Translations under genes and position numbers: made by a program
The notes under the pieces: generated by a model
The model's database searches: none
The model's input: the letters and a program-made list of their open reading frames with translations, nothing else
Told to the model about the DNA's origin: nothing
From: Podospora anserina
Lineage: Eukaryota
Direction: 5' to 3'
Assembly (NCBI GenBank): GCA_017654855.1
Contig: JAFMPO010000001.1
Location: 186,001 to 250,000, forward strand
Length of the DNA stretch: 64,000 bases
Part shown: positions 42,029 to 64,000 of the stretch, one piece after another
Numbering within the stretch: position 1 is the first letter of the stretch
Layout of the letters: each line of letters starts with the position of its first letter

Positions 42029-43544
42029 ATGCCTTCAGCTATCCCACAGAACGGATCTGCCCTCCACGAGGAGCCAAAGCCGTACGCCATCTTTATGTTC
42101 CTCTCAAGTTTTTGGCCTCCAAACTCACACACCACACAGATGGGATCCAGATCACCTCCGGACTCGCTTCGTGCAGGCCCTCTCAGAGATGTACAGAACC
42201 GAAGTACCCCTCTACGGCAAGCTCGTAGATGTCGTCAACCAAGTCGATACCACCACCCTCCAGTCCCGCGGCCAAAGCCTCAACGACCTCCCCTCCCGCT
42301 TCCAGCTTGAGCGCCATGGCGCCATCAGACTGGGCACCCAGCAAGAAATGCGCATGATCAGCCGCCTCTTCGCCGTCATGGGAATGTTCCCCGTCGGCTA
42401 CTACGACCTCAAAATGGTCGGTTTTCCCCTCCACGGCACGGCTTTCCGGCCCCAGACCGAAGAATCCCTCCGAAAGAACCCCTTCCGAGTCTTCACCACC
42501 GTCCTCCGACCAGACCTCATCTCCTCCCCGGAAGTCCGGGAGATGGCCACCTCCATCCTCTCCACCAGACAGCTCTTCTCCTCCAGGCTTATCGAGCTGA
42601 TCGACCAAGCGGAGACCTCTGCTCTAGCCAACCTCACGGCCGAAGACGCCAACAACCTGATTACCGAATCTCTCAAGATCTTCAAATGGCACTCCCGATC
42701 CTCTGTTCCCCTGGAGACGTACCTCACCCTGAAAAAGGAGCACCCAATGGTGGCCGACATTGTCTGCTTTCCCTCAGCACACATCAACCACCTCACCCCG
42801 CGCACCCTGGACATCGATGCCGTCCAAGCAGGGATGATTTCCCAGGGCCTCCCAGCAAAAGACCGCATCGAGGGACCTCCCAAGAGGAAGTGCGAGATCC
42901 TCCTTCGACAAACCAGCTTCAAGGCTTTGGAAGAAAGAGTCACTTTTGCTGGTGACGCCGACCACGCCGTTGACGGGACGCACACCGCCCGGTTTGGAGA
43001 GGTGGAACAGCGCGGTGCTGCTGTGACCAGAAAAGGCAGGGAGCTCTACGATGCTTTGCTCGCCAAGGCTGTTGGTCGGAGTGAAAAGGAAGACAAGGAC
43101 TCTGACAAGGTGCTGAAGGAGGTGTTTGCCGAGTACCCTGATGACTGGGAGGTTCTTAGGAAGGAAGGGTTGGTGTATTTCCGCTATCGGGTTGCTGAGG
43201 ACAAGGCACCCGTTGCTGGCGCTCGTAAGCTGGAGGGGTCAGTGCACATGGATAGACTTCTAAAAGAGGGGGTTGTGACCTGCGAGCCGATCACATATGA
43301 GGATTTCCTGCCATTCTCGGCGGCGGGTATTTTCACTTCCAACCTTGGCGGGGAGAAGGACGGTGGCACTGAGAGGAAGCTCCAAAAGACAGAAGAGGAG
43401 AGCAAGAGGAGCCGTGTGCAGCTTGAGGGGTTGCTGGGGCGCAAGATTCCAAGTGAGATTGACCTGTATGATGAGCTGCAAACTGACAGTGTGAAGGAGT
43501 GTCAGGCTCTTCTTGGGTTGAGCGAGATCGTGCTTGGGGCTTGA
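42029..43544 (+). CDS. hglS: DUF1338 / YdcJ-HglS type 2-oxoadipate dioxygenase-decarboxylase
   Basis: ERHGAIR, HINHLTPR.LDID, LLRQTSF, HTARFGEVEQRG and YEDFLP.SAAGIF.SNL motifs. A short first exon (42029-42081) splices to WDPDHLR. Confidence 0.88.
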
Positions 43545-43649
43545 AGTATCTCGAGGGACTGTTTCGTAGGTAGTTTATTATGGTTATTACTTGTGCTGAT
43601 GTTACATTGATTGTCGTGGCATCGTTCAGAAGCCTGTCCGTGAATCGGA

Positions 43650-46187: not shown

Positions 46188-46295
46188 GGATTGTATTTCC
46201 CGGCCTTAAGGTGGGTGGATGGAATGCTGTCAAAACTTGAAACTCAGCAGCTCGGGGCTTGCAAACATAGCCATAGCAGTACCTGTGAGCCCCAG

Positions 46296-46490
46296 AATTG
46301 CGGGGTAAAGAAGCACACAGCTGGGTATTGTGGAGGTTATGTGGAGAACAGGTTTGGCGTCGGCGCCGGTATGCTCGGGTCAAGCGGACTTTGGCTCGCC
46401 GAGCACTGTGCTAGGAAGCGATGGCCAGTTCAGGCCTGCAAGGATAATTCTCCGACAAATGCGGGGAACACCATGGGGAACTGTGCGGGG
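46296..46490. promoter_or_regulatory. Three GCGGGG (SYGGRG, CreA/CRE-1-type) sites upstream of the TF gene
   Basis: GCGGGG at about 46300, 46461 and 46485. Confidence 0.45.
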
Positions 46491-46603
46491 ATGATTTCTC
46501 AAACTGATCACTGTGACGGTGTGTGATGAACAAGTCCAAGGCAAGGCGATGACATTCATTGAGAAACTATCGAAGAAAATCTAGACTACTCCTTTTTTTC
46601 CCC

Positions 46604-48317
46604 CTATTTCGGGCCCTTCATGAAGAGGTCCCAAGCGTCCATGACCTTGTCCAGCACCTCTTGCTTCATGAGCTTCTGCAAAATGTCTCTTCGCCCAGTC
46701 TCTCCAGGGATCTCGCCAGAGACAAACCGAGACTGGTCCTCTTCACCCTGCTCAGGAGCGTAATACACCATAGCGCCCTCTTGTGCCCCTATCTTGTACG
46801 CTGGCCAAGGAGCCTCGCCATGGATGAAAGCAATGGCGTCCTCGGTCTGCTTGTCGCCTGCCTTTTGCTGGCCAACAGGAAGAAGCTCACGGTAGTTCTG
46901 CAGGACAAACACGATGTCGAGGATGTGCGTCGCATGGCCCCTCCACGGCCCATCCCAAGGGTTCGGAACGTTGAAGTGGCAGAGGAATGCCTCGAGCCCG
47001 GCCTGCGACCAAGACCTGACGAAAGTTCTCGCTCCAAGCCCAAAGCAAATGTCGGTTGCGAGGTCGAGAACAGCCTTGAGAGACTCTTGCGAGTTGGCGG
47101 TGGCGGAGGCGTTGAGGCCGTACCCAGAGACGATTTTGGGCGCCAGCTCTCGGTCGATGGGATCCAGAGTGGCAGCCAGGAAAGTCGCCATAGTCTTTGG
47201 CATTATGTCTACTCTAGCAGCCAATCTTGGGCCGTAGGCGTTGCCATCCATCTTACAATCGCCAAACATGATTCGCTTGCACCATTGCATTCCTGGGAAC
47301 AACTCTGCTGTCCGAGCTGGGTCGGCCATCTGAGCATAGGATGTGGTTCTTGGAATCAAGTCGCCATCGACAATGGGTGCCATTGGCACTTTGCGTGCAA
47401 TCTTATCCCTGATATCCTCCATCGGGACCGTCAACAGTCGCTGAACTTGGGCCGTCTCGTCAGTTTCTGAGATGTCAAGAAGCTGCAACGCCCTCTTAAA
47501 CGACCCCTCGGCAAGTTCTGGCTGCTTGGCTTTGACCAGAGAGGAACCGCTCATCGAAATCAGCTGGTCGAACAACGGCTCCTTGGAGTGGAGATGGAAA
47601 GTGCCCGATGCCGCCCCCGAACTCTCGCCAATATAGGTTACGCGGTGCTCATCACCACCGAACCCTGCAATGTGGTGTTTGATCCAGAGCAAGCCCTGTC
47701 TCTGGTCATCGAGGCCGTTGTTTGGCTTGTAGCCTGCAGCCTTCATGGCAGAAGAGTAGAGGAAGCCAGGGACACCCAACCGGTAACTGGGGCAACGTCA
47801 ATAACCTGGGGTTTTTGATTTTGGTGGATGAATCTTACTTGACACCCACAGCAATGATTGGCTTCCCAATCTTGACACTTCTCTGGACGATACGAGCGAG
47901 ATCATACTGCGGGTAAGAACTGCTCCCCGTCGCAAAGGCACCGCCATGGACAAGGGCCAAAACTGGCCATTCAGGACCGTCTGCCTGGAGATCAGGTACA
48001 GCGATGTTGAGTGTCAGACATTCCGTGTCTGACTGCCCAAACTCTGGAGACTCCAGAGACTGCTGAATCAGTGCGTGCTCCCATTGGCAGCCGTTCGCTG
48101 GGCTCAATGGAATGGGCGCGAGGGTTGTTGCGTCAAAGATGCCGTATTGGACACGGGGGTGGTCTGATGGGTACGACTTCAAGAGCTCAGCACGTGAGAA
48201 GCGATCTTTCAAGGTCGCATACTGAACACCAAGAAACTGTGTAACACCGACTGTCTTCACCACCCCACGAATTGGCCCAATGGTTGGGTGTTGGAGAATA
48301 GGGGTCTGTTCGGACAT
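46604..48317 (-). CDS. Type-B carboxylesterase (no signal peptide)
   Basis: ECLTLNI, HGGAF, YRLGVPGF, GL.DQ..GL.W and catalytic GESSG motifs, one intron near 47790-47835. Confidence 0.9.
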
Positions 48318-48714
48318 GACGACAACTTTTGGTACAAGAAAACTGATGATGGAGGTGTGGGCCGGGAATAGCTCCAAACTCAGAGTTCGAGCAAGATCTG
48401 TCTCAATATCATCGTCGTCCTCCCCTGCCCTCAGGCGATGGATCGGATCCGCCTGACAGTTTGTGGCGGGTGTTTGCGGGCCTCAAAGCACCAGATCAAA
48501 ACACCCGCCTTATCGCCGCACCCCACAAGACTCTAGGTAGTGACGACCAAATCCGCCTTGGCACACCACGGTCAACTATTGATCTGATAAGACGAGGTGT
48601 CTCCATGTTAGCATGTTTTGAAGAACATCACATTGAGATTGCACGATTGCCATTGCCAATCACACAACCGTCACATCTCGCAACTCATTCGGCCCAGTCA
48701 CGCAACACTTCGAC

Positions 48715-49329
48715 ATGGCAACCACGGAGAAACTCGTCAGTCCCTCCTCCATCGGCCACTTCGGCATTAGAACAACCCCTGAAAAGTTCGAGGCCATGGT
48801 CAAGTGGCACCTCGACTTCTTCGGTGGACGCGAGGTACTTCGAAACGCCAAGGCCAGCTTCATCCAGTGGGACGAAGAGCACCACAGAATGGTCATCGTG
48901 CAAGACGACAGCCACGAGCAGATCCCAGCCGACAAGCGCCCTACAGCAGCAACAGTCTACCACATCGCTTTCACACTCAACTCTCTCGAGGATCTTGCCA
49001 CCAGCTACGAGCAGAAGAAGGCCCGCGGCATCCTGCCCCACTGGCCTGTCAACCACGGCATGAGCACCTCGATGTACTACTTTGATCCGGATGGAAATGA
49101 GTTTGAGATGCAGGTCAACAACTTCGACACAGCGGATGAAGCTCTGGAGTTCATGAAGACGCCAGAATATGCGACGAACCCGATTGGCGTGGATATTGAT
49201 ATTGAAGAGTGGCTGGCACGGGTCAAGAGCGGGGAGGATGAGAAGACCCTCAAAAAGCGTCCGGTTATTGGGCAGAGGCTTAGCCGGTATGAGAACTCGA
49301 TTTACTGGAAGAAGCCAGAAGAAGCGTGA
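48715..49329 (+). CDS. VOC/glyoxalase-fold protein resembling small single-domain extradiol (biphenyl-2,3-diol type) dioxygenases
   Basis: GHFGI, DEEHHR, YHIAF and NHG.STSMYYFDPDGNEFE motifs. Confidence 0.8.
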   Translation: MATTEKLVSPSSIGHFGIRTTPEKFEAMVKWHLDFFGGREVLRNAKASFIQWDEEHHRMVIVQDDSHEQIPADKRPTAATVYHIAFTLNSLEDLATSYEQKKARGILPHWPVNHGMSTSMYYFDPDGNEFEMQVNNFDTADEALEFMKTPEYATNPIGVDIDIEEWLARVKSGEDEKTLKKRPVIGQRLSRYENSIYWKKPEEA

Positions 49330-49802
49330 GGATGGAACATGGGCGGTATATCGTAGCGAAGAATTGAATAAAGAATCTTTTGTGACCGACAATAAAGTCT
49401 ATGTATGCTTCGCGAAGTTTCAACCGTGGACTAGTGACCCCTTGTGATGAGGGCACTGTAAATGGCACCAGCACCAAGTGCCGTGATGTTTCATGCACAT
49501 TCCCATTCCCCTGGATAAGCTTGGGTAGGTTCTCTTGGGCCCTGAACGTTGGAAAACCTGCCTTAACGGTGTTGGTCTCAATCATGGTGGTCTGGTTGGC
49601 CTGTCAAGCAGAGTGGTGAATCCGCCATCGGTCCGGGATTGTATCGCGAGGAAGCTGAATCCATCCGGGATCAAAATCCCCGACACCCTCAACCCATGTC
49701 AATACCAAGCTGGAACAAGGGTATCGCCATCAAAATCACGACATCACAAAGACAAAGAGACATGGAAAGAGTAGCAAAGATATTGTAAGACAGAAATTGT
49801 AT

Positions 49803-51085
49803 TCAGATATGGTCAGTCGTGCCAATCAAGGGCTTCCCAGAGCTCATGACCTCAATGAAGGTCTTGGGAGCCTCCTTCTCAAAGAACATCTTCTGGCTCT
49901 GAAGACTTCTCGTGATAACATTAATAGCGAAGGGGAACATCTCCCTCTCATAGGCAGCAACAGCCTCCTCGTTGACGCCCAGTTCCTTCAACTTTCCAGC
50001 AAGGATGATCGCATCTCTCATGGCGCAGTTGACACCATCACCAACGAATGGTGTCGTGACATGAGCAGCATCGCTAATCAACGTCACACCCGGGACAGTC
50101 TTCCAGTTGAGACTGTCTGTGGGGAAGTAGTATATGATCCAAGGTCTGAAGGGACCCTGACTTTGATTGATGATCTCCTTCATCTCATCCGAGTAAGGAC
50201 CAAAGAGGTTATCTCCCAAAAGGTACTTCTTGAACGCGTCCCAATCCTTGATGTCGACGAGACCGGCGTCGGTAAAGTTCTCGGGGCCGGGAATGCCGAC
50301 GTCGATACGGTAGTGCCCGTCGCCTTGTCTGCTGTTGAACATGTGGATACCCTTGCCCATGACGATTATGGACCCTATGCGGCAGAGCTCCTTCATCTTT
50401 TCGTAGTATGGACCGCCAGGGAGGATCTTGGTGGTGACGAACAGATTGCCGCTGTATTGTGGCTTTGCGTCGGTTACCTGTCGAGCGCTGTTAATACCCA
50501 GGTAGCTGAAACTCTCTAGAGCGGAAGGGAAATGGTCGACGAGGGATTTCTTACCAAATGCCGCACCTTGGACCAGGTACCATCGGCGCCGACTACAAGC
50601 CCGAACCCCGAAGTAGTGGTTCCATTAGCGAAATTGAGAACGATCTGCCCGTTCTCGTCACGGGTGGTGCTGGTAACTGGCTTCTTCCAGTGAACCTTCC
50701 CCTTGGGGATGCCACTGAGGAGGACCTTTCTGAGAGCCCAGCGGTCGATCTTAGGGGCATCACGGCCCTCACCAAAGTCGAAGAAATTCTCGCCCTTGTG
50801 ACTGAAGAGGCGATGGATGGTGGCGTCGCCGTATCGGGTATACTTCTTGAACTCTTCAAAGACACCAGCGTCCTTCAACGCTCTTTGACCGCTGCCAGGG
50901 TGTAGATCGAGGCAGCCACCACGAGGTGGGACATCCTCAGCACTGCTTTCATAGATGACGTAGTCGCAACCGCCCTGCTTCTCGAGGAGAGCACCAAGAG
51001 CCAGGCCAGACGGGCCGGCACCAACAATGCAGATCTTGTTGTTGTTTTTGTTGTTGTTGTTGTTGTTGCTGTTGCAAGAAGACAT
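49803..51085 (-). CDS. FAD-dependent monooxygenase (TetX/aromatic hydroxylase-like), possibly RIP-damaged
   Basis: IVGAGPSGL, GGCLDL, VGADG.WSKVR and xDAAH...PF.GDG.N.AM.DA motifs, one intron. N-terminal poly-Asn comes from an AAC repeat. Confidence 0.85.
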
Positions 51086-51342
51086 GGTGGATGTGGTGGT
51101 CTTGGTGGAACGGAAAAGGTTGAGGATGGGTTCAAAGATGCAAGACAGAGGAGGGATTGGCATAAAAATATGAGCCGAAGGGAAATAGGGTATCAAATGA
51201 GCGAGGGTGTGATGTGGACTTGAGCCCACTCTGATATCGTGAGTTTCCTGTATTAATAGAACGCTGGTGTTCACGTCCGCACAACAGGCATCCCATCCCC
51301 ATGATTCTCTGACCCAGCTCGCGACTCAGCACGGTGGATCAA

Positions 51343-51574
51343 TTGCGGGGTCCCCGCAAACATGAAGCTTCCCGTCATCCGTCTGCCGTCATCGCGAGAT
51401 TCAGCGTGCAGCCTGATCTCGGGTTTAAAGCGGAATGCCTCATATCTAGCGGTCTTTGGTGGTTTGGGCCGTTGCGGACGCCTTGCGGGAGGTCTAACGT
51501 TGATCATTTGATCTATTTGGACCCTTGAACGCGGCACTTGGCATCTGGGGAAGTGCGGGGTGTGTTTTGCGGGG
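51343..51574. promoter_or_regulatory. Inverted pair and cluster of SYGGRG sites upstream of the monooxygenase
   Basis: TTGCGGGG-T-CCCCGCAA at 51343-51359, CTGGGG at 51545, and GCGGGG at 51555 and 51569. Confidence 0.5.
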
Positions 51575-52810
51575 TTCCAATGCTACTGAGCTTGGCCTCA
51601 TGGTGGATGCCCGGGCTTGGGGATGGGGATGGTTGGTGCCATGCTATGCCCTGGTCGTTGGATCCAAGACGTTGGGACAGTTTTTCTGGAATGGAATGTG
51701 ATTGAAGGGGTTCAAGATTTGAGTAGCTTGGGTATGTCAACAAACGACGTTCAGGGGCTCAGGGGCAGTAAAGTGGGTCCCGCCTGACCTCTGTCAAAAG
51801 TCAGAAACTTGAAGGACGGGAGATGCTAGTCTGTGTCAAACTTCACAGTGAAATTACTATCTTGAAGTTCTTATAATTGTGCTAGGTTATTGACGAGCCC
51901 AGGATTCTGTCCTAACATCATTGATCCTTTGTTTGAGCTTGGTTACTAACATGATAATAAGGTAGAGGTAGTTAGCTTACCTAGTATGCAGTACCAATAT
52001 CCGAGCTTCATTTTACTGCTATAGATTCATGGTTCATGATCCTGACTGCGTATCACACACTGCAAAGCCGGAGGAACTTGCAGTCCCCTCGCTGACCAGG
52101 TTCTTTATATCACGGCTTTTACACTTAGGTTCTTCATTTTGCACGGTGCAAGATTACTCAAGCAGGTAGGCATGCAAGTTATCTGAAAGCAAAACCTTCT
52201 CCGAAAACACTTGATGCTGTCAACACCTGCGAAGCTAGAAAGCGGAAACTCCTCAGAACGAGCACAACGCTCTAGTAGTCTGTGGTGCGAGTCTTCTGTA
52301 GAGCCGGTCATCATTCGTCAACGCCCATAAAGTTCCTAAACGAAAAAGAAAGTTACGAACCACCAGAGGACCCGATGCAAGGCATAATTCGGCAGCTACC
52401 CAAGAGTGGTAATGGGTATACCGAAAGATATTGATACACAGCTACGCGCTGGACATGTTACATGAGAACTTCAGGTTCTAGGGTGCGTACCTATTTATCT
52501 AGTCTTGCCGGTTCACATTCAGGTAAGGTAGGCTTGCACTGTCCCGTGTCCTGTTCTGTATCTACAAGAGCTTCAGAATAGATCGAGATCTCACTGGTGC
52601 CTTACTATATCTTCCCAAGCTATTATTGTGGTAGATTTTAGTCTGTCAAGAGTCTGGTTAGTTGGCGACACATATCATCAGCTCTCATGATAGCATAGCC
52701 GTAAATACATGTTGAATGGCGATAAGACGTGGTATAATTTGAGTGAATATTCAACACATGTGTACGTATTTAATACCGACTAAGGTACATAGCAAGAAGA
52801 AAAGACATCA

Positions 52811-55567
52811 TTACTCCGGAACCTCAACAATATGGTCTGCTTCCACTCTCCTACGTTCACGTCTTAGTGCTCTCCTCTCCGCTAAGCTCACTGAGCTGCC
52901 TTCGTTGGAAGTGTTCCTTCTATCTCCTTCCTCCGTACCTCTGAGAGAATCGTGTTCCAAGAGACTTATCGTGCTCGCGCTCTTTGGTAACGACCACCTT
53001 GACGAGGAAGGTCTTAGGGTCCTGTGCGGAAGAGATATGCTCGGTGTTCTAAGAAGAACGGTAGTGTTCGGCGATAAGACAGTTAAAGCTTCATCCTCGT
53101 CAACATGCTTTGCCTTTTGCTTCCTCTCGTTGTCACTTTTACTCGCACCGGCAAGCTTTGATCGGTCGTCTTGTTCGGATTCTCGATTTGGCTTATTGCT
53201 CAAGTCATCCCCAACAGATAACTTCTGCTGCAATGGCAAGGTGGTAGGGGCTGATACGTTTCTGATTGAGGTTCCGGCAAGGTCCCGAGGTCGGGGACGG
53301 CTTTCAAAATTGAGTGAAAGATTTTTGGATGTTATTGTCTCGCCGTTGACTTCCACAACGACCTTTAATGATGCCCCGTCAACGCTGGTGAGGCATGAGT
53401 AGCAAAAGTAGCGATACCTCTGGCCATGAGAATTTGTGCTGAAGGGAAGATCGTCAAATGGAATTGGAGAGCAGAAGTCAATCGTGCACAGATTCTTGAC
53501 CTCTGGTTCGATTCTAGTAGGGGGTTTGACTGTGTCGCAGCTGACCAGGTGTTCTGAAATGCGTGGGTACTCGTGCGGATCATGAATTGCGTAGTATCGA
53601 TAGTAAAGTTGCTTGCGAGGGGACGTCTCTGTTGTATTTTCACCCTGTATAGTCGTTAGACACATGAAGACATCGGCATGGGTGATGTGATTTGGATTGA
53701 CCTTTGTAACAAACCATCTGATTTGAGCATAAGCAATTGTTTCGAGAGTGATGGGGTCCACCATTTGGTCTCTCTCATCATGTACACCTTGCTGAAAGCG
53801 GGTATCGTATATGTGGCCATAGTTGCTACGTGATATTCGGGACGTAATTTTGATTTCAGCATCTTGGGTGCCCCGTATGACTGCGCCTCGGCATATAGCG
53901 GTCCATCTGTGAATATGAATTAATTAGCTTCCGCTCAATGAGGCTCACGTTCGGGACTCTCACGGTCCTGGCTCAGATGGCTGCATCACTGGGCAGTCAT
54001 CACCTAACCAACTACTCAGCCTTTCCCAGAGGTATCTAGATTTCCCAAACCCTCCGACCAAGATGACAAACTATCAGATTGTCTGTTAGCCCTACATTTG
54101 GCAGCTCTGGGTTTCCATACATACATTCGGACCTGACCCTGTTTTCTTTTCAAGTGTCTCAATTTGTGAGTCAACAAGATCCAATATCTTGGAGACAACA
54201 TGATCAAATATTTCCGCGATAGTAGACCTAAAAGATTAGAAGATATCCCAAAATTCACATGCCTGAGGTACGGCAGGGGCACTTACGATGACAATGTGAT
54301 GTCTGCCTGTCCAGTTAGTTGAACCACTCGAGCAGGAAGGCGCACCTTCCAGAGCTTTTCAGGACCCTGCTTCAATGTAAATTGTTGCTTGATACCATGT
54401 TCCCATGACTGATTCATCATCTCTGCAATTTCTTGTGGAGGGACCTGACGCCAAACATCTGTAGCAACGTGATCTCGAACAAGTGTCTCGAACTCCTGGT
54501 CCAGAAAGATCGCTCCACAAAGGGCCCCAGTACCTTCCACGGCTTCCCTAGCAGCAAATCTGTTGGTATCCACAACCTGGTAACTGATCAAGTCCTAAGG
54601 TCATTCAGTTTACAGTCAGTTTCTAATGATCAGGCCTCCAGGCGTTTTCTTCTAAAAAGAAAAGAAAGAGGGAAACTTACGACCGTGCCTCCCCCAGCGT
54701 CGACAACAGTTATGGATGTCCCGACCTTGTAGCCCCAGTTGTCAGCTAATTATCGACCAGATAGTGGCGGTATTGCATCCTACTTTGATGTCTGGTCTGC
54801 CTTTCATGTTGGTGAAAGTGGCAATTGCTGCAGCTTCAGGCTCAGAAACGAAGTCCAGTTCGGTTTCGCCACATTCACGAGGATCAAGTAAGCCCGCCAT
54901 ATTCGCTGCTTCGCGCATTCTCTCTCTCATGTAGGACTTCCAAATCGCGGGGACAGTGATGATAATTCGGAATGGCGTAGACTTGACGAAGCTGGGTGTC
55001 ATCGCCTTTTCTACGTCGGCCATAACATGACTCCAGAGGTTTCGCAAGTAATCCGCAATGACATCGATTGGTTTCTTTCCCATCTCCAACAACCGCTGTC
55101 TGGCACTGATAAGCTGGGGGGCATCCTTGAGGTGCTCTTGAAGGTCCGCATCGTCGAGAAGCAATAGTTTGAACCACCGAACAGATTCATCGAAGGTGAG
55201 AATATTATATCCCCAAGATGTGACCTGTTTGGTGGAAGAGTATGATATCGCTGTTGGTGTCTTCTCCCGTTCCGTGTTCATATATTGGACGCTATCCCAA
55301 TTCTTGACGAGATGGATATCCTCTGGCCGAACCTTTCCCGGACGCGCTGACCATGCAACACCAGTGTAGCTAAGACGGCCAAGTTAGAATACTAGGCATA
55401 ACAGAAGGCAAACCCGCGATTTTGCACTGGATCTGGTTACATGATACATACGTGGTTCCGAAATCAATTCCAAACACGAACGGCGCCGCACGCATTCCGA
55501 CGCTGCTAGACTTCGAAAGTAATGATAGTTGGCTCCCCAGCTGCGAGCCTGTGAGAGATCCCTCCAT
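52811..55567 (-). CDS. Atypical Hsp70-family (HSPA12-like) actin-fold ATPase, six introns; start uncertain
   Basis: Spliced exons give GIDFGTTYTGVAW, WFKLLL, ITVPAIW, EPEAAA, DAGGGTVDLISY, LVGGFGKSRYL and AICRGA, followed by a low-complexity C-tail. Confidence 0.88.
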
Positions 55568-56296
55568 ATTCAAGCTACCAGTCGTCTGGGTACCTCCGTT
55601 GGCAAAGGAAGCAACAATTGTATGTGAAGTTGATTTGGGCTCCAAGGTGTGGGCAAGACGGAGGAGAGCAGCTACCTAGATGTTGAGACTGAGGGATGTC
55701 CTGGTCGTGCATGTGGTCAAGCACCAGGCTTCTGGGCGGGCGCGACAGACTCCTCTGGCCACAACCCACCTGCGCTATCATTGTAAGCACAGACTCCTCC
55801 TTCCAGTCAGTCATCTCACCGAACGCCGACTCTTGCAAATAGGGCTAACCATGTTATTTCCAGGCGCTGACGCAGTCCAATCGTTCAATGCACTGCCCGC
55901 AAACCAAAACAACATGGTCGCCTTCAGGGCCGACGCCACATGCAAGAATATGTGTTTTCTTTCCCAGTAATCACCCACAGACAGCAACTGGCGGCGCCAT
56001 CATTGTCAATAGCTCAAAATTAAGCCTGCCACCCACCCCTCATCATTGTACCGTTACTTCGATCTGGAGATGCCGTAATGACTGCACACCCTCACGCGAT
56101 GGAAAGTCCCCCGCATTGGGCGGACTGGCCCAGGCAGGCAGTCCACGAGGTTTATCATGAGGACTTCCACATTTCAGGACAAATTAAGGGACACCAGGCC
56201 CCGTCATCACGATATCCTTTTTGCTCTCGTTTTCTTCAAACCTCCGGCCACCTTAACCGACGACCTTTGTCACCGTGACATATCTAACCCAGAAAG

Positions 56297-57427
56297 ATGG
56301 GCGAACCTGAACAAAGCATGATTTTCATCATGGGCCTCTCGGGTTCCGGCAAGTCAAGATTTGTAAACCTCTTGCGACAGAATTCGGTGCGCGAGGGAGC
56401 AGGTCTGCAATCAGGTACAACACCATTTCCGAGACACTGTCACAGGAGCTTATAGTAACGTCTTCCAGAAACCCAGGAATGTCAAGTCGTGCAGCTGCGA
56501 CTGAAGGACAAGCTAGTATCGGTTGTCGACACTCCAGGATTTGGCGACTCCCGAAAGACCGACGCCGAAATACTGTCAACCATATCCGACTTTCTCATTC
56601 TTCAGCATGCAGCTGGTTTCCGACTGAACGGTATCATCTGGCTGCATCCAATTGAACAACAGAGAATGCGCAGACCAGACCTCCAGGCCCTTACCATGTT
56701 CCATGATCTCTGCGGCAAGGATGCTCTCTCAGCCGTTACTCTACTCACCACTAGATGGGATCATGTTAAAGATGAGAGGACTGGTGCCATGCGCGAGCGG
56801 GAGTTGCGGAGGAGTTTCTGGAAGGATATGATCGACCACGGTGCCAACGCGCAACGCTTCAATGGCTCCTCAGAGATGGCGAAGTCAATTGTGCGGCGCT
56901 TGCTACGCAATAAACCGGTGATATTGCAAATCCAAAAGGATAGCATGGAGTCAGGCAAGAGGCTACGTGATACCGCCGCAGGGGCTAGAATTATGGAAGA
57001 TCTTGAGGTTGATCTGAAGAGACAGGAGGAGAAGGTAAAGAAGGCCGAGCGGGAACTCAAAGCCGGGGCACAATCTGGTGATCAGGCGACCGAACAAGCC
57101 TTACGAACACGGTACGAAGCAGAAGCGAGGGAAAGGGAGCGGCTCATCTCGAGCTGTCAACGAATGAATGCAGATCTGGGCCAAGAGATAATGGAAAAGT
57201 GGGACAGGATTCAAAAAGATTTACCACAGGCCGGAGCCGGGTCTGACTCGGACTCGTGCCTCGAACATGAGAAGCAAGTACCTAACAAGGGCACAGCTCC
57301 GAAAATCGAAAACACTCGAAGGAACAGGTGGAAAGGGCGGGTTTCTGCCTTTGCGAATGTTCTTGGCTTGACCCTGGCTGCGGTGGTCCACATTGTTCTT
57401 CCATTGGCTGGTATTGCCGTCGGCTGA
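56297..57427 (+). CDS. AIG1/GIMAP-like TRAFAC GTPase with coiled coil and C-terminal membrane anchor
   Basis: G1 GLSGSGKS in exon 1, G2 S.T across the intron (about 56414-56468), G3 DTPGF and G4 TRWD. A coiled coil and a hydrophobic tail (VLGLTLAAVVHIVLPLAGIAVG) follow. Confidence 0.88.
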
Positions 57428-57694
57428 GAGAGCTTCGGAGGAAAGTACTGGTACAAACTAGATGTAGGGGTGTGGGCCTTTTTGGCGCCAGCACTAAAAA
57501 ACCTATGCACAGCTGAGGCAGTGTTAAAGCCAAGTCACACCACCGCTTGCAGTATGAATTCCTTGTCCACCTCATGTGAGACAACCCCGAGTCTGACAAG
57601 GCTCCAATGCGCAATATCAGCCATCTTCTCCTCCCATGATTGAGGGACAGGTTGCTCTGTATATTCTCTGTCCGTTTACACATAAGCGAGCACC

Positions 57695-59008
57695 ATGTTT
57701 GACAAGGTATTCCGACCGATAAATGACACAACGAATTCAAGCCGCAAAGGTCGTAGCAGGTTGCCAGAACCAGTTCGTTCGCCCACTCGTGGAGGGATAT
57801 TCCCAAAAGCAGGAACTCAAGCAAGGTACGTCGCCATTTGCCACAACAATCAAATGACCCCATGTGCAGGCACGAGCTTATCAATGTACAGAGCACCACA
57901 GATACCACAACGGCTATCAAGTGCCAGTCAGTCTCTAGCATGGCCAGCAAGTCCTTCAGCAAACTCTTTCCACCTGAGACAATTGAAGCAAGAGCTTGCT
58001 GAAAAAGACCGCAAGGTGAAGATTCTCTGCGAGGAGGTTGAGGAATTGAAGAAGGAGAAGGAAAGCCTGGAGAGGGAAATCGATCAGTACGACGACGAGT
58101 GCTTCAAGATGGAAGCAGAAAACAAGCAGCTTCGCGATGCCTTTGTTGCCCTCAAGGGTAACCCCAACCATCACATCGACGACGGTGTAGTCCAGTCGCG
58201 ATTCGGGGAAATCAAGTTCACCATCGAACAGATCGTTTCTATCCGTTATTCAAGCTCCACAACCATATCCAAAAGTATGCGATTAGACCATCCCTCGAAG
58301 CAGCTATTTTCGAATCTGGTGGAGGATGTGGATTGCTACCTAACACAACCAGTGGGAAAGGCCCTCTTGATAGAGGCATTTATCTGGAATTTCCTCATTT
58401 CGGAAGTTTTCAGCGGCAACGGGATGCTCTGGGCTGGCAAAGCATTTGAGCATGTCAAGTTTTTATCTCGTGAGCTTGAGAACGATACTGTTTCTCTGGC
58501 TGATCTTTACAGGTGGAACGCACACACAGCATCAATGTTGTTTTCCATGTATGATCTGGACAAAAGACGCATACAAAAAATTGCTTGGAATCTAAGGGCC
58601 AGCTTAGAACCTTGGCAGAATAAGTCTTTCAAGGAGGGACAATGCGACTCTCTAGACAAGCTTGTACTCTTGGCAGCAAAATTGGACGCCGATTTGGCCC
58701 GGAGCAAAGCTGAATATATGGTCTTCATGCTGGAGACCATCGAAGCGCTCAATGGGCTTGCGAAGAACAAATACGGGGTTCCTTTTGACCAGGACTACAT
58801 GGAGCTTGAGAGCGGAAACAATGACAGGTGCGGGGATGTGGAGCTTGTAGTATCCCCAACGGTGGCTAAGGTCGGGAACTCGGACGGGGAGAATTACGAT
58901 TGCTGTACTGTGCTGGTGCGAGCAAAGGTAATCTGTGGTGGCTCAAAAGCTGGTCGTCGCCAACAGTCTGCATCAACCCCCTCAAACTCTTTTCAGCCTC
59001 AAAGATAG
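57695..59008 (+). CDS. Coiled-coil protein with a GrpE-like C-terminal motif
   Basis: Long heptad region (LRQLKQEL...LRDAF). C-terminal GVPFDQDYME...GDVELVVSP...VLVRAKV. Confidence 0.75.
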   Translation: MFDKVFRPINDTTNSSRKGRSRLPEPVRSPTRGGIFPKAGTQARYVAICHNNQMTPCAGTSLSMYRAPQIPQRLSSASQSLAWPASPSANSFHLRQLKQELAEKDRKVKILCEEVEELKKEKESLEREIDQYDDECFKMEAENKQLRDAFVALKGNPNHHIDDGVVQSRFGEIKFTIEQIVSIRYSSSTTISKSMRLDHPSKQLFSNLVEDVDCYLTQPVGKALLIEAFIWNFLISEVFSGNGMLWAGKAFEHVKFLSRELENDTVSLADLYRWNAHTASMLFSMYDLDKRRIQKIAWNLRASLEPWQNKSFKEGQCDSLDKLVLLAAKLDADLARSKAEYMVFMLETIEALNGLAKNKYGVPFDQDYMELESGNNDRCGDVELVVSPTVAKVGNSDGENYDCCTVLVRAKVICGGSKAGRRQQSASTPSNSFQPQR

Positions 59009-60727
59009 AACAGACTTCATATAATTAATTGGAAGGCGTTCAGGCTCGGCCGTGAAGAAGCTTCGCAGAATTTAAGTCATGAGCTTGTATTCAAGAGTAC
59101 TTCCAACCCTTACCCATCTAATACTTGAAGCAATGAAAGTCTTCCTCTCACCCGAGCTCAATACTCTTGTCCTAGCTACCTACTTAGCGACACGATCGAA
59201 GTATTGAGCACATACACGCTGATAAACAACAAAGATAATCAGTCTGGACTCAAATTTATGCTACCGTATTTACGCATTTGAGGAAGGAGAGATTGCTTCA
59301 CGTCGGAGACTTATTGCACGTAGACTCTTTCTGGATGCTGCCATTTGCTTATATAACTGGTTGTCTGTAGTAATATCGGTAGGACCTGATTTATCTAGGA
59401 AAATTAGAACCCTTCTTTACACAATAGGAACATCAACTTAGGGGTAGCTGTTACTACGCCCTTTGGTCTTATGCTGAACAATCACCTATTGGTCGCTTCA
59501 ATCATTCCCACCTTGTCTACCTAGCGAAGTTATGACACTTGGACTTTTCCACGTCTTTTGTACTGAAGGGGTTCTTGTACAGGTGTTGGTGATGCGTACG
59601 ACCCGGCATAGCTGTTGCCGTCAATAGCCAACGCGCATCAGCAACAGGTAACTTTCTAAGTGTCAGGTGTTGAAGTCATTATTATGTCATCAACAAATCC
59701 CTGCCGAGCAGTTGGCAAGTCAATTGACAGAGCTCATTGGAGTGCTTGTCCTGAGAGGCTAGTCAGTATCTTGTGCAAATTCTTCCCCGAGTGCCGGCAA
59801 GATTTCACAGAACAGGTCCAGAATGCCTCTCAAGTACCTGTTCAGATGAAGACTGTCATCTGGCTTCCTAAAGAGCCGGCTCGAGTAAGATGGCATCTCC
59901 ATGCAGGGCAAATCTTACCATGGATTTGGATACTAATCTAGTTGGTGTTATGCAGGAACAAGAGCGAGAGCTAGGAGAGAGTCAAGAGGAAGAACAATCG
60001 CGATTCTCAGGAGGAGGTGGATCTCAGGCTACCTCTTAAAGTGTTGGGTCTTCACAAAAGAGCAATAATGTTCAGCAACAATGCTATTCAGTGTCTTGCA
60101 GATGTATAACACACGCCTTTCATATTGAGCTTGTACCTTCAGCTAGGGAATAGCCCTGTTAGCTACCCTTTAGGGCTTAACGCCTGTTGGGAACTCTTCC
60201 AGGCGTGGTTTAGGATATTATCCTGCATTGGTTTACTCTGTATTGCCTGCTTTTTCATCCATAATCAAACAAAACAAAAGGGGTTCAGGGGTTCGATGTC
60301 TGTGCGTATTTGGGGTCCACTCGGCCAAGGGTTAGGGGTGTGCTTTGGGAGTTCACAGAATACTTGCTGAGATGGTATTCAAAGCAATCATCCCAACACA
60401 TGGAGCTTTGAAGACAGGTTTTGAATTGCTGTTGTGGCACTACGGCATTCAAGGGTCTTTGGGTTATCTGTACCTATTCTCAGCCCCAGCCTCAATACGC
60501 GGGTACATCCGCCACATTGACTTGGCATCAGCACACAAGTTCGACGCGTCTTGCATCTATGTCAGCATTGGCATGGATGCTGTGCCGCAAATGCAACGCA
60601 CCGCCTTTAGGCTTCAGGGGTCGGCAGAAGGATGACCTCCGACAGGAGTTTTCAATCGACAACCGACAATTTTCTTTCACTTTGCAAAAGGTTAATTTTC
60701 ACGCGTTTCCCAGATCATCATGTGATC

Positions 60728-62230
60728 ATGTTCACCCTCACGCGATTCACGCGACACACAATCCTCATCCTTTTCTTCATCACACTCTCTGTTCTATTTT
60801 ATCACTCTTACAGAAATCCGCCAACGCAGAAAGGCTCCTCATTTCTTACATCAATCCCAGAAATTCTGAAGCCTCTCACTTCTGGGAAGCATCCCCCGCC
60901 GCGATACAAGCCAACACCATCATGGCTCCCTCCACCCGTTTTCGACCCATTCCCCTTGCTGGCGAATACCGCCGCCGATCCCCCACCAATACCCGAGTAC
61001 AATATTCCTCGTCCTGAAATGCACAAGGAATACGGCCTCGACCGCGCCCCCCCGCTCTTCATCGGCTTCACCCGACAGTGGCCCATGCTCCTCCAAGCAG
61101 TCGTCAGCTACATCACCGCGGGGTGGCCGCCAGAGAACATCTACGTGGTTGAAAACACCGGAGTGCACAACATGAACAAGCAAGGCAGACTCACCCTCCA
61201 GAACCCTTTCTACCTCAACCACACCACCCTCCACCGACTGGGCGTCACCGTAATCCAAACCCCCGTTCTGCTTACCTTTGCCCAAATGCAAAACTTCTTT
61301 CTGTCGATAGCCTACCAGGAAGACCACCCCTATTACTTCTACAGTCACCAAGATGTCCTCGTCTTCTCGTTTGAGGAAGGCCTCGACTTCATCAGCCGAC
61401 CGGCAGACGGCAACTGGGAATTCTACAGCGAGGCGGAGAAGAAGGAGATATTGTCTCCTGTCCAGGCCGGCAAAGAGGGCTACCGGACGATTTACGAGAA
61501 CTGCCTCCGCGACTTGCAAACAGTGATCAAAAGAAAGGAGCGCTGGGGTTTTAGATGGTATCAATACGACCACTTGACGCTTGTCAACAGGGAGGCAATG
61601 GAGGCTGTAGGCGGGTGGGACTCCCTGATTCCGTACTATGCAACGGACTGCGATATGAATGGCAAGATGGGGATGGACGGGTGGACCATGAAGCCGAGGA
61701 GGGTGGGGATTATCAATGATGTTTCCACCGTGCTGGAGGACTTGGAAGTACTCTATCGGAACAAGTACAAGATGCCAAAGTTTATCGATCCAGCGCCGTT
61801 GCCGCCGGAGAAGGAGGCAAAGATCGCAAAGGCCAAGGCGGAAAAGGAGGAGAAGGAGCGGAAGGAGAAGGAGGAAAAGGAGGGCAAGGCAAAGAGAGAG
61901 GAGCACGGATTGCCTGCTGATCAGCTGCAGTATTTCCGAGCTTTGAGGGCCGTGGGCGATGAGATGGGCAAGTACAAGTATCGGGATGGGGCTGAACAGC
62001 GGAACAACTGGCAACGGGCGCAACGAGGTGGTGAAGAAGAGCCGTTTTATTACAATGCGGATGGGTTTCATAGTGCCTTTTGGACGCTGACAGATGCCGG
62101 GAGACGCATCTACGAAGAGAAATGGGGTCATAGAGGTTGTGACTTGGCGTCTGGCACATCCCTGACGCTCAAGGACCAGTGGCGTGTGGAGAAGGACTGG
62201 GAAAAGAAGAAGGAGGACAAGAAAAATTAA
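60728..62230 (+). CDS. Type II membrane protein, putative GT-A fold glycosyltransferase
   Basis: N-terminal TM, Pro-rich stem, YVVENTG, HQDV and GGWD..IPYY.TDCD motifs. Confidence 0.6.
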   Translation: MFTLTRFTRHTILILFFITLSVLFYHSYRNPPTQKGSSFLTSIPEILKPLTSGKHPPPRYKPTPSWLPPPVFDPFPLLANTAADPPPIPEYNIPRPEMHKEYGLDRAPPLFIGFTRQWPMLLQAVVSYITAGWPPENIYVVENTGVHNMNKQGRLTLQNPFYLNHTTLHRLGVTVIQTPVLLTFAQMQNFFLSIAYQEDHPYYFYSHQDVLVFSFEEGLDFISRPADGNWEFYSEAEKKEILSPVQAGKEGYRTIYENCLRDLQTVIKRKERWGFRWYQYDHLTLVNREAMEAVGGWDSLIPYYATDCDMNGKMGMDGWTMKPRRVGIINDVSTVLEDLEVLYRNKYKMPKFIDPAPLPPEKEAKIAKAKAEKEEKERKEKEEKEGKAKREEHGLPADQLQYFRALRAVGDEMGKYKYRDGAEQRNNWQRAQRGGEEEPFYYNADGFHSAFWTLTDAGRRIYEEKWGHRGCDLASGTSLTLKDQWRVEKDWEKKKEDKKN

Positions 62231-62440
62231 TACCTTGGCTGATACAAAGGCCCTTAATGTTGGCGCATGATGGGAGTTCTTGCATTTGAAATGGAAAGTA
62301 TCACAATGAAAATTGTTGCTTATTCCACATTGAAGTTAACTCAAGCGTAAAGGTCGAACAAACACGCCTCGAACGCCAGAACCATTATCAATGACCGATC
62401 GCTCCCTTGCTTGACCCGCCGCCTTGCTTGACCCGCCGCT

Positions 62441-62713
62441 CTATTTAGAATCCTTGCTGAAGAATGCACCCTCGCCACCAAGCTCCTCGAGCTTCTGCTT
62501 GGAGTTTTCCTTGGACTGCTCGCTTGTGTCTTGGACTTTTGTTAGTACGAGGGTCTTGACGTGGACAGCTAACTTTGACTTACTTGGGTTGCTCAAATTG
62601 GCCTTGTGGCCGCGGGCCTGGTTGCTAATCTCCTCGGGAGCCTGAAGGGCATTTTCCTGAGCCGCATCGCCGACGATGTCACGCTGCTTGGGGTTCTTGC
62701 GGAGTTCAGGCAT
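62441..62713 (-). CDS. Small Con-6 (conidiation protein 6) family protein, one intron
   Basis: After removing the GTAAGT...CTAAC..AG intron it reads ARGHKANLSNP.TSEQSKENSKQKL. Confidence 0.7.
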   Translation of the reverse strand: MPELRKNPKQRDIVGDAAQENALQAPEEISNQARGHKANLSNPSKSKLAVHVKTLVLTKVQDTSEQSKENSKQKLEELGGEGAFFSKDSK

Positions 62714-63147
62714 GGTGATTGGTTTGACGAAGACTTGTCAAATGTCCTTGTGTGTTGATTGATGTGCTAATGGGCTGTTCAATTGCTGAGTGGATTGGGT
62801 TTCAACTCGTGTCAATGCGAAGGTGAAATTAAAAGACTCTGCGACTCGCGGCCTGGTCCGCTCTAAATAAGTAGGTAGGCACCTTGATATGAAGCATTGC
62901 TTTATTTATGACTCGTGACGCCATCAGTACATCATGACCATTGCTGTGCACCTGGCATGACATCACCACTCCGTATCAAACGGTGAAAGCTCGGAACACA
63001 TCATTTGGCAGACAATGACAAACTCTTTGATGATTGGATGAATTTTTGACAATGAAACGCACAACAAACAAACAAACAAACACCAAAGTTCGTCATGACC
63101 ATCTGCGCCCAGAAGCCCATCCCTGCTTGCAGCTGTCTTCACCACTT

Positions 63148-64000
63148 CTAGGTACCCTGAACAACGCTTGCGGCTTCCTCATCATTGCCAGGGGAAGTCA
63201 GTTTGATGACCAGCTCGGGATCCCGCGAATAGACACGGAGTCCAACAACAGCAACAGCGTTCCAGAGCGAAGGTTGATCCTCATCATCCTCCTCTTCGTC
63301 CTCGTCATTGTCATTTTCTTGCCTTCCCTGCCCACCTTGTTGGATTTCTTCACGACCGGCCGCAGCAGCTTGTGCCTCATCAGACCCTCCAGGTGTCTCC
63401 TCGCCAGTCTCAGTAACACTCGCCTTTTCTGCCTCTTCGTCCTCCTGTTCGGTTTCCCACCCATCACTAGAATCACCCTTCTTCTCCTCCTCCTTCTTGA
63501 AGGCCTTGGCATGGGCGAGATCAAAGCTTAAACCGACCTGCCTCAGCTTTTCTGGGCGGCGCCGAGCTGAGGCCTTGACAATCGCCTCGACAGGAGGCTT
63601 GCTTGTGTCGCGCTCGGCAGTGATCTTGGGCAGGACCTCGTAGATGCCTGGCTCAAGATCAATCTCGCAGTTGATGGACCGATTGGCGCGAAAGAAGTTC
63701 TCAGCCTGCGGACGGACGCGGCAGAGGTAGTCCCCTGGCTCGGCACCTTGCTTCTGGAGGATGAAGTGCAGAAGAAACGAGTATTCTCCCTCAAGGCCGT
63801 TGAAGTAACGGGTATCCAGCTGTCAAATGTCAGTCGAAGGCACTGGAGAAAATGCGGAGGTCAAGTTACCTGTTGCAGAACAAAGACAGCAGTGGTGGCT
63901 GTTTTGACCTCGATAACGAACTTGCGTTGCAAGTACCCAGAAACCCAGGCAACATTGACGTTTGTCCATTCTTGAGCCACGGCCCACTCGTCATCGAAGA
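63148..64000 (-). CDS. 3' part of a fungal calpain-like cysteine protease gene (partial)
   Basis: EW.V.QEWT.VNV.W, VFVLQQLDTRYF.GLEG.Y.F.LHF and terminal PWNAVAVVGLRVYS motifs. The catalytic domain lies outside the window. Confidence 0.7.

Follow-up and report, generated by a model that had tools for sequence, protein, structure and literature searches.

Three neighbouring genes of Podospora anserina, which lie together in contig JAFMPO010000001.1 (positions 186,001 to 250,000, forward strand; this whole stretch of 64,000 nt is "the window" in what follows), probably form a module that Sordariomycete fungi have conserved and inherited as a unit. At its core are two genes, that of an Hsp70-like ATPase and that of a protein we term the partner, and between these lies a recurrent third member, the gene of a tail-anchored AIG1/GIMAP-type GTPase. 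The Hsp70 and partner genes are neighbours through deep divergence, in two gene orders and among changing flanks; since the genes stay together in distantly related fungi, the trio is probably one cellular machine. An original prediction, made from the letters of the window alone, had picked out these genes as a dedicated membrane system, named the third product GrpE-like, and looked to three-gene microsynteny, congruent trees and presence/absence polymorphism as its marks.

To follow linkage beyond Podospora we scanned metagenome contigs with the Hsp70 alignment, the partner-family alignments having no stretch conserved enough to serve as an anchor. The 80 Hsp70 loci obtained reduce to 55 distinct contig groups (cited by L numbers), in 16 of which a partner-family gene, detected by tblastn and the family hidden Markov model (HMM), lies beside Hsp70. 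The pair takes two forms: divergent in eight groups, with the partner upstream on the other strand, and tandem in the other eight, with the partner downstream on the same strand. Thirteen groups have a gap of 0.8-1.7 kb between matched parts; in the other three, two of them with a GTPase gene between Hsp70 and partner, it measures 2.1-2.8 kb. Nine groups out of the 55 show no partner although their flanks reach 2.5 kb or more on either side. On a tree of 51 Hsp70 rows, all 16 partner-linked groups fall in one clade of 33 rows (Shimodaira-Hasegawa-like approximate likelihood-ratio test, SH-aLRT, 92), which also holds the window, Triangularia, Hypoxylon and Anthostomella; all seven no-partner groups present in the tree lie outside it. 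Every group of this clade whose flanks show any neighbour has the partner adjoining Hsp70 (16/16), and none with at least 2.5 kb on both sides is without it. The tandem groups form a single clade (support 100). A control with 55 reading frames taken from the flanks of the window gave no match to any of the 80 loci, and no other flank gene is common to the divergent-type loci.

Named genomes show the same pairing. In Triangularia verruculosa KAK4198998, KAK4198999 and KAK4199000 are Hsp70, GTPase and partner, in the window's order; in Colletotrichum karsti (Glomerellales) CkaCkLH20_08034, a single gene model comprising GTPase and partner, adjoins the Hsp70 gene 08035; in Anthostomella pinea (Xylariales) Hsp70 and partner are consecutive entries (CAJ2504004 and CAJ2504005); and in Hypoxylon trugodes they are two numbers apart (KAI1386328 and KAI1386330). 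Two independent annotations of Truncatella angustata place GTPase and partner domain in one model. The linkage in named genomes thus spans Sordariales, Glomerellales and Xylariales, that is, three Sordariomycete subclasses. At closer range, the locus is collinear in five Podospora species and Triangularia, and the trio is present in the Podospora species complex at 96-99% identity. The expectation of microsynteny is therefore borne out for the Hsp70 and partner genes, by the clade groups with a visible neighbour and by three orders of named genomes; extended to three genes it stands in part, the pair being constant within the clade wherever the flanks show a neighbour, and the GTPase no more than recurrent, in five of the 55 groups.

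The Hsp70 and partner trees mirror one another over much of their depth. The topology of the tandem clade is equal in both, and shallow and middle clades are identical, among them ((L002,L008),(window,Triangularia)), with support of 99 for Hsp70 and 95 for partner. Pairwise distances of the two proteins are correlated (Mantel r 0.915), also when the 12 non-tandem pairs are taken alone (0.863), and in neither case was any of 9999 permutations as high. When the partner alignment is fitted to the Hsp70 topology it is 36 log-likelihood units worse than its best tree, as against 1180-1354 units for five label-shuffled trees, and identity of the two topologies is not rejected by the Shimodaira-Hasegawa (SH) test (0.43). 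Partners, in short, are not exchanged between lineages. The differences between the trees concern deep, long branches; the partner evolves faster than Hsp70, at a mean p-distance of 0.74 vs 0.58.

The GTPase behaves as an optional member. A homologue lies directly upstream of Hsp70 in five groups, L003, L005, L011, L013/L014 and L049: in L003, partner, GTPase and Hsp70 have exactly the window's order and orientation; in L005 and L011 the contig ends within or just past the GTPase; in L013/L014 the GTPase is inverted; and L049 is a distant case without partner, outside the Hsp70 clade. With the window, Triangularia and Colletotrichum added to these five, eight rows have the GTPase, and 11 have room for it and are without it.

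A number of observations weigh against the module as we read it, or reduce what the evidence is worth. Presence of the GTPase changes at least five times on the tree of 19 scored rows, and L002 and L008, the window's nearest environmental relatives, have none; a loss in these two fits, since Colletotrichum, the next branch out, has a GTPase that groups with that of Podospora (99). The GTPase-partner proteins of Colletotrichum and Truncatella (P0173, P0196) are probably merged gene models and not true fusions, the Colletotrichum model skipping the tail anchor and the Truncatella model reading through it; even so, they document the order GTPase-then-partner. In 30 of the 55 groups, 13 of them inside the clade, the flanks are too short to judge, and most metagenome loci derive from a small number of sample series. 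Among the eight tandem groups, at least L019, L020, L023 and L045 have further flank genes in common; since these four may be one orthologous locus in related species, the tandem groups count for fewer than eight independent cases. Strict identity of the topologies is rejected by the approximately unbiased (AU) test (p ~0.001, from 2000 replicates, fewer than the program advises), so that the congruence originally expected holds for shallow and middle clades and in the distances and the SH test and, as strict identity, fails the AU test. Mirrored trees in any case argue for stable co-inheritance and not for interaction, because the distances of neighbouring orthologues correlate anyway. Presence/absence polymorphism, finally, shows no sign within the Podospora species complex: the trio is 96-99% identical in the species seen, with none of the coming and going typical of defence genes, which counts equally against a defence role.

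The locus itself comprises the following, in window coordinates.

55567 (ATG) to 52811 (end of stop codon), minus strand: Hsp70-like gene PODANS_1_21850, eight exons, 767 amino acids (aa)
55567-55452, 55369-54784, 54725-54681, 54594-54287, minus strand: its exons 1 to 4
54227-54125, 54070-53964, 53906-53701, 53643-52811, minus strand: its exons 5 to 8
Between these exons: seven GT..AG introns of 82, 58, 86, 59, 54, 57 and 57 nt
55568 to 56296: divergent intergenic region, 729 bp between the Hsp70 and GTPase start codons, from sequence and contig ends
56297 to 57427, plus strand: AIG1/GIMAP-type GTPase gene PODANS_1_21860, exons 56297-56414 and 56469-57427, intron of 54 nt, 358 aa
57695 to 59008, plus strand: partner (third) gene PODANS_1_21870, exons 57695-57825 and 57892-59008, intron of 66 nt, 415 aa

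The Hsp70 gene model was built by hand and refined with P0008, a 767-aa protein from assembled public reads only, which supplied the seventh intron (57 nt) and which the spliced product equals letter for letter. The products of the other two genes are identical to P0137 (PODANS_1_21860) and P0144 (PODANS_1_21870). Eight of the nine introns are precisely joined in contigs of all four public runs, from four studies, and the ninth (54071-54124, in the Hsp70 gene) in three of the four; all joined introns have GT..AG borders, and each gene is on a separate contig. The library type of these runs was only guessed to be RNA, and the intron-less contigs are taken as spliced forms because precise intron removal is a signature of mRNA. 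The contigs, product identities and gene models bear out the original prediction that three intact genes lie here, and its distances of about 730 bp for the divergent gap and 270 bp to the third gene measure as 729 bp and, from GTPase stop to partner ATG, 267 bp. The next long reading frames on either side are ~1.5-1.6 kb away: the spacers that had been put at about 1.7 kb exist, at this smaller size, and such isolation is not shown to be unusual for a fungal genome. Contigs of Hsp70 extend to 55698 and those of the GTPase begin at 55903, so that ~200 bp of the intergenic region are uncovered; a promoter shared by the two genes within the 729 bp can only be supposed, because contigs cannot define RNA ends. 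The sole difference between window and contigs in 6.6 kb and four runs is at 55951, in the GTPase leader region, where run X2 has C and the window T.

Existing annotations of the Hsp70 gene differ from ours. PODANS_1_21850 as given in the reference (P0132, 718 aa) is an erroneous model. Its start at Met69 leaves out exon 1 and the phosphate-1 loop, and 19 surplus residues come from intron 7 (57 nt), which was not removed; spliced contigs favour the 767-aa form. Protein P0129 of Podospora pseudoanserina (QC764_121850) is annotated with 236 aa and ends exactly at the end of exon 2, which may reflect either an error of annotation or a gene truly truncated in this species.

On both sides of the trio (38000-52700 and 59100-64000) lie ordinary genes, namely a split FAD-dependent monooxygenase at 49803-51325, a carboxylesterase, a Zn2Cys6-type regulator, a 2-oxoadipate dioxygenase/decarboxylase and an alcohol dehydrogenase, besides a 539-aa frame at 60611-62230 with no Pfam match. 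The far end of the window, 1-13000, is extremely AT-rich (GC 12-33% per kb), has no reading frame of at least 150 aa, and looks like a repeat region degraded by repeat-induced point mutation beside gene space of normal 50% GC.

The Hsp70-like protein has these parts, the domain limits being those of its AlphaFold model.

55480-53867, minus strand: predicted ATPase domain, residues 30-435
53851-53306, minus strand: predicted domain resembling the beta part of the substrate-binding domain (SBD-beta), residues 441-603
53296-52901, minus strand: predicted disordered tail, residues 607-738
52885-52829, minus strand: predicted terminal basic helix, residues 744-762
55366 to 55471, minus strand: phosphate-1 loop GIDFGTTY, residues 33-40, split by intron 1
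54701-54592, minus strand: phosphate-2 loop DAGGGTVD, residues 243-250, split by intron 3

The match to Pfam HSP70 (PF00012) is just above its cut-off (26.3 vs 20.6 bits; 27-49 bits for the relatives) and, at profile positions 125-351 of 599, is confined to the ATPase domain, and a search of NCBIfam gave distant DnaK/HscA matches only. Four motifs, GIDFGTTY, DAGGGTVD, EPEAAA and LVGGFG, which we take to be the phosphate-1, phosphate-2, connect and adenosine motifs, align with the ATPase motifs of Hsc70 and are invariant or nearly so in alignments of 12 and of 70 relatives. In the model (predicted local distance difference test, pLDDT, 79.3) the ATPase domain is confident and residues 441-603 are all-beta, most blocks with pLDDT >90. 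Its best Foldseek match is ATP-bound DnaK (4b9q_A; E 1.6e-24, 624 columns, TM-score by target 0.57, root-mean-square deviation (rmsd) 6.2), and it is also paired with BiP-ATP (~620 columns) and Sse1; because the model aligns over these columns with full-length ATP-bound DnaK and BiP, the beta domain would sit at the docking place of SBD-beta. No alpha-helical lid (SBD-alpha) is seen in the model, where residue 603 is followed by disorder and then only the short helix 744-762, and there is no EEVD-type C-terminus, the sequence ending ...HIVEVPE. The protein as modelled thus consists of an ATPase domain and an SBD-beta-like domain without helical lid: the atypical Hsp70 first described is intact and has kept its ATPase motifs, and the SBD-beta-like domain is an addition to that description. 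"HSPA12-like" is a label, to which the sole hint is the source name "heat shock 70 kDa protein 12A/12B" of several relatives.

The tail (residues 607-762; 52829-53296) is divergent, and two short stretches in it, LRPSSSRWSLPKS and ERR.LRRE.RRVE.D, are identical or nearly so in Triangularia; the latter is the tail's sole confident helix. They may be docking motifs.

The GTPase has three landmarks.

56333-56356, plus strand: P-loop GLSGSGKS
Residues ~192-283, plus strand: helix-rich stretch, prone to coiled-coil formation
57359 to 57424, plus strand: C-terminal tail anchor VLGLTLAAVVHIVLPLAGIAVG, residues 337-358, from the Kyte-Doolittle profile

It matches Pfam AIG1 (PF04548) at 39.2 bits (cut-off 27), over only profile positions 3-133 of 212, and MMR_HSR1 at 30.2 bits (cut-off 21.9). 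NCBIfam gave generic GTPase matches only, PADLOC nothing for either this protein or the Hsp70-like one, and the closest solved relatives by sequence are GIMAP4, 5 and 7 (E 1e-4 to 9e-4). Motifs G1 to G4 are intact, as GxxGxGKS (GLSGSGKS), ET, DTPGF and TTxWD (TTRWD), and are kept in eight linked relatives; all linked GTPases share the intron that follows the P-loop exon. The last 22 residues are the only strongly hydrophobic stretch (19-residue Kyte-Doolittle mean 2.31 at 337-358), and the module-linked GTPases of Triangularia and of contigs L003, L011 and L013 have in common an anchor motif, S.FA.VLGLTL..V.NIILPL.G. The identification of an AIG1/GIMAP-like GTPase with a C-terminal membrane segment was thus correct.

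For the partner, the AlphaFold model (from a 40-sequence alignment; pLDDT 80.1, predicted TM-score 0.69) gives the following.

Residues 1-64, plus strand: predicted disordered head
57962-58153, plus strand: predicted single long helix of 64 residues, residues 68-131
58181-58936, plus strand: predicted helical domain and small beta domain, residues 141-392

The helical domain is 141-314 and the beta part, six-stranded and home to the most strongly conserved residues, 318-392; the long helix appears prone to dimerize. HMMER finds 229 family matches at E<=1e-3, 35 of them at E<=1e-10, among 1.84 billion representatives, and the ESM Atlas has clusters of 4377, 205, 90, 71 and 57 members, almost all from Ascomycota and none with a Pfam family: this is a large Ascomycota family without a Pfam model. 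Searches of Pfam, NCBIfam and PADLOC with the partner gave no family past coiled-coil noise (in PADLOC merely two weak coiled-coil matches), no Pfam family matches more than one of 40 family members at E<=1e-3, a PDB profile search with the family gave coiled-coil noise only, and Foldseek of the model against the PDB gave no match at E<=1e-3. The UniRef name of P0128, bZIP transcription factor, was considered and rejected: bZIP_1 scores 13.8-14 bits vs 27.6, over the zipper part only, and the residues preceding the helix are Ser/Pro-rich, with no basic DNA-binding region.

Weak resemblances point elsewhere. Partner residues 130-400 align in the ESM Atlas with GIL1/IRKI clusters (TM-score 0.62-0.63) and a MIEAP cluster (0.56), with predicted models on both sides, and PF24994 (GIL1/IRKI_C) matches one of 13 partner C-terminal fragments at E 0.015 (15.7 bits vs 27); for the 40 members at E<=10, neither PF16026 nor PF24994 is among the matches listed (best 25 of 212 families). 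The beta domain thus leans, weakly, towards the C-terminal domain of plant GIL1/IRKI and towards Mieap, all scores being below family thresholds. A Basidiomycota cluster of 100 members, 57% of them with a GTPase domain, has a domain that aligns with partner 133-394 at TM-score 0.73; this fusion cluster is known from its Atlas summary line only.

Two features of partner genes may be added. Podospora fimiseda has two paralogues (P0159, P0167) on one 228-kb contig, with protein numbers four apart, which suggests local duplication. In 18 of 21 loci with strong HMM matches (L002, L007-L009, L013, L014, L016, L019-L021, L023, L027-L029, L032, L035, L038, L045) the gene is split in two reading frames, mostly near HMM position 255-258, a region that is in a single frame in Podospora, L003 and L030; this suggests a conserved intron.

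How might such a module work? The partner would bind Hsp70 directly, as cofactor, adaptor or obligate client, and ATP cycles of Hsp70 would serve to load it, hold it or let it go; in modules that include the GTPase, the C-terminal anchor of that protein would put the assembly on an organelle or on the endoplasmic reticulum membrane, and the GTPase would add a GTP switch. We consider a membrane location through the tail anchor reasonably likely and, on balance, incline to direct binding of Hsp70 and partner; an exchange-factor-like action of the partner seems unlikely. The module could act in stress, organelle quality control or cell-autonomous defence. The GTPase polymer and the role in membrane repair that the original prediction also envisaged are conjectural.

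The module might, on another reading, be a device of cell-autonomous defence or allorecognition, a fungal counterpart of the prokaryotic GTPase-HSP70-GrpE conflict systems with the partner as effector or sensor. Such a role is conceivable, and we hold it to be unlikely. It would accord with the bacterial GTPase systems linked to HSP70 and GrpE, in which AIG-type GTPases occur as effector domains (PMC7159879, in its accessible part), and with the immune roles of GIMAP/AIG1 proteins in animals and plants (the same part of PMC7159879, and common knowledge). Both fungal families, Hsp70-like and partner, are large and multi-copy, as the 4377-member partner cluster, the several Hsp70-like paralogues per Xylaria or Colletotrichum genome and the two partner paralogues of P. 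fimiseda illustrate; the partner evolves the faster of the pair (p-distance 0.74 vs 0.58), and the module is found in changing genomic contexts. The three proteins, however, contain no NLR, HET, HeLo, TIR, nuclease, pore-forming or other known effector domain, PADLOC returned nothing beyond its two weak coiled-coil matches, and the window neighbours are ordinary metabolic genes. The near-identity of the trio among Podospora species is equally out of keeping with defence, and its spliced forms occur in contigs from four studies that are unrelated and not confined to challenged cultures.

Alternatively, the partner could be a nucleotide-exchange factor of GrpE type that has diverged very far and serves this Hsp70 alone: it would dimerize through its long helix, extend along Hsp70 and, with its C-terminal beta domain, open the nucleotide cleft of the latter. 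This we consider improbable. Pairing with the gene of an Hsp70-type ATPase recalls bacterial grpE and dnaK, and the parts are in GrpE's order—disordered head, one long helix, helices, small C-terminal beta domain. In a structural search of 48,161 solved chains, independent of Foldseek, human GrpEL1 (9bls_B) ranked first (Z 6.7, rmsd 14.7 Å, 152/161 residues, covering the partner model over 98-398) and Geobacillus GrpE 50th (Z 6.2), 47 of the other 48 listed rows covering the long helix alone. When Foldseek's best 987 chains were re-scored, GrpE took ranks 1, 2, 3, 5, 7, 16 and 17 of the 50 rows shown, with entries from human, E. coli, Geobacillus, Mycobacterium and Thermus (Z 5.1-6.7, rmsd 13-16 Å); and hhalign pairs one segment, partner GVPFDQDYMELESGN with GrpE NVPLDPNVHQAIAMV. 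Yet Z values of 5-6.7 tie with those of plain coiled-coil matches and fall short of what the tool itself counts as noise (below Z 8, and below 13 where a model is helical), an rmsd of 13-16 Å means that GrpE and partner do not superpose rigidly, and the Foldseek rows for GrpE have E 0.25-0.5. Sequence comparison is no kinder: Pfam GrpE (PF01025) is absent among the matches listed for 40 members (best 25 of 212 families) and matches none of 13 partner C-terminal fragments even at E<=10; no GrpE model of Pfam or NCBIfam matches P0144 or P0128 at E<=0.01-0.1; the PDB profile search yields coiled-coil matches only; and hhalign puts the probability at 0.1% for E. coli GrpE and at 0.18% for a set of 70 distinct enterobacterial GrpE, the latter a weak test in view of the low diversity of the set (genes 86-99% identical). 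The partner's helical domain (~170 residues, eight helices) is, besides, far larger than that of GrpE. GrpE is the sole solved fold that aligns end to end with the partner model, within noise, and we read this structural echo as a shared order of parts and not as evidence of kinship. The name GrpE-like, then, is unproven and is backed by none of the sequence tests.

That the genes merely stayed where they were, adjacent by descent or through a bidirectional promoter that is hard to break and with no joint function, is very improbable. Divergent gene pairs are frequent in compact fungal genomes, synteny within Podospora and Triangularia is expected from descent alone, and the four tandem loci with wider shared synteny fit such an account. 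Against it, Hsp70 and partner remain paired although Hsp70 p-distances average 0.58; divergent and tandem orders are both kept, so that the pairing hangs on no single promoter layout; flanks are unrelated among divergent-type loci and to the window; clade loci with both flanks visible are never without the partner; and in separate clades the GTPase turns up in the same position. Carriage of the genes as cargo of a mobile element, kept together by that alone, is hardly credible: flanks do vary between loci and the Hsp70 and partner trees are mirrored as those of a cassette would be, but 51000-60700 has no direct repeat and only one, chance-like, inverted pair of 18 nt, no transposase-like frame occurs among the scanned neighbours, the locus is collinear in five Podospora species and Triangularia, and mobility cannot explain a pair that is never split.

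A conserved pair of Hsp70 and partner, with the GTPase recurrently between them, therefore remains our preferred reading. It could be extended much further: the partner as a diverged GrpE-type cofactor or adaptor coupling an HSPA12-type Hsp70 to a membrane-anchored AIG1/GIMAP GTPase, the whole an ancient eukaryotic ATPase-GTPase machine that is the fungal counterpart of the bacterial GTPase-HSP70-GrpE conflict systems, is the reason for Hsp70-AIG1 co-expansion in molluscs and nematodes, and acts on organelle membranes in stress survival or cell-autonomous immunity. As a whole this extension is quite improbable.

HSPA12-type Hsp70s and AIG1/GIMAP GTPases are both widespread, both matter to medicine and ecology, and the mechanisms of both are obscure. 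In oysters and in a heat-adapted nematode the two increase in copy number together, and no physical or genetic link between them is reported in searchable papers. The fungal neighbourhood supplies a link, and points to an unannotated family of thousands of Ascomycota proteins as the likely connector; should the partner prove to be an Hsp70 cofactor, Hsp70s of the eukaryotic cytosol would have a regulator of a new class. All three genes are present in P. anserina, a model organism with tractable genetics whose genes are routinely deleted and whose proteins are routinely tagged and co-purified. Our literature search, limited to articles outside subscription journals and to their main text, turned up neither this neighbourhood nor the partner family and, in the literature searched, no mention of the identifiers Pa_1_21850, Pa_1_21860 and Pa_1_21870, in agreement with the earlier remark that no description of such a fungal module was known. 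New here are the adjacency of Hsp70 and partner in 16 of 16 clade groups with a visible neighbour, its two arrangements and the unrelated flanks, together with the linkage in named genomes, the largely mirrored trees and the GTPase between the pair in a subset.

Several known systems invite comparison. In bacteria an Hsp70 ATPase is encoded beside its private cofactor in the dnaK-grpE(-dnaJ) and hscB-hscA pairs, and GrpE consists of a long helix followed by a small beta domain. The module differs in that the partner has no sequence similarity to GrpE, J-domain or HscB, and from GrpE in being twice as large, with a big extra helical domain. Vertebrate GIMAP1, 2 and 5 share with the Podospora GTPase an AIG1-type G domain, helices and a C-terminal membrane anchor; the similarity is weak (E ~1e-4, 24 bits), and the Podospora protein differs in its G4, TTxWD, and in its conserved, sequence-specific anchor motif. 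We know of no link between GIMAP and Hsp70 genes. Mieap/SPATA18 (PF16026) and plant GIL1/IRKI (PF24994, DUF641) resemble the partner in having a disordered and coiled-coil front half and a structured back half; in the accessible part of Ikari et al. 2024, Mieap orthologues are reported absent from fungi (PMC10845071).

Prokaryotic conflict systems come closest in composition. The accessible part of Kaur, Burroughs, Iyer and Aravind (2020, eLife; PMC7159879) describes GTPase-centred systems with HSP70 and GrpE (GAP1-N2 type) and DO-GTPase-tubulin-HSP70 systems; like the module, these combine the gene of a TRAFAC-class GTPase with those of an ATPase of the Hsp70 family and of one more helical cofactor; in some of them the HSP70 is without a peptide-binding domain, and AIG-type GTPases occur in related systems. 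As presented there they are bacterial operons, predicted by comparative genomics only, with recognisable GrpE, DnaJ and effector domains, whereas the module has separate eukaryotic transcription units, a tail-anchored GTPase, no effector domain and no GrpE sequence signature. McrB-GTPase systems with Hsp70-like domains also exist (PMC11090510, in its accessible part). Among Sordariales, an NLR survey set aside a large MMR_HSR1/AIG1-type orthogroup, with no further study in the part accessible (PMC12258605).

Joint growth of the Hsp70 and AIG1 families, as distinct from linkage, has been noted more than once. Guerin et al. (2019, J Mol Evol), known to us through its connection by citation with Weinstein et al. 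2019, reportedly deals with such co-expansion. According to the accessible parts of the respective papers, the two families co-expand in stress-adapted animals (Weinstein et al. 2019, Nat Commun; PMC6872716) and are both expanded in Glomeromycotina (PMC8778642). In nematodes and oysters, as far as those parts go, the link between Hsp70 and AIG1 is a correlation of copy number, whereas in the module it is one of physical adjacency and co-inheritance, with a third family between.

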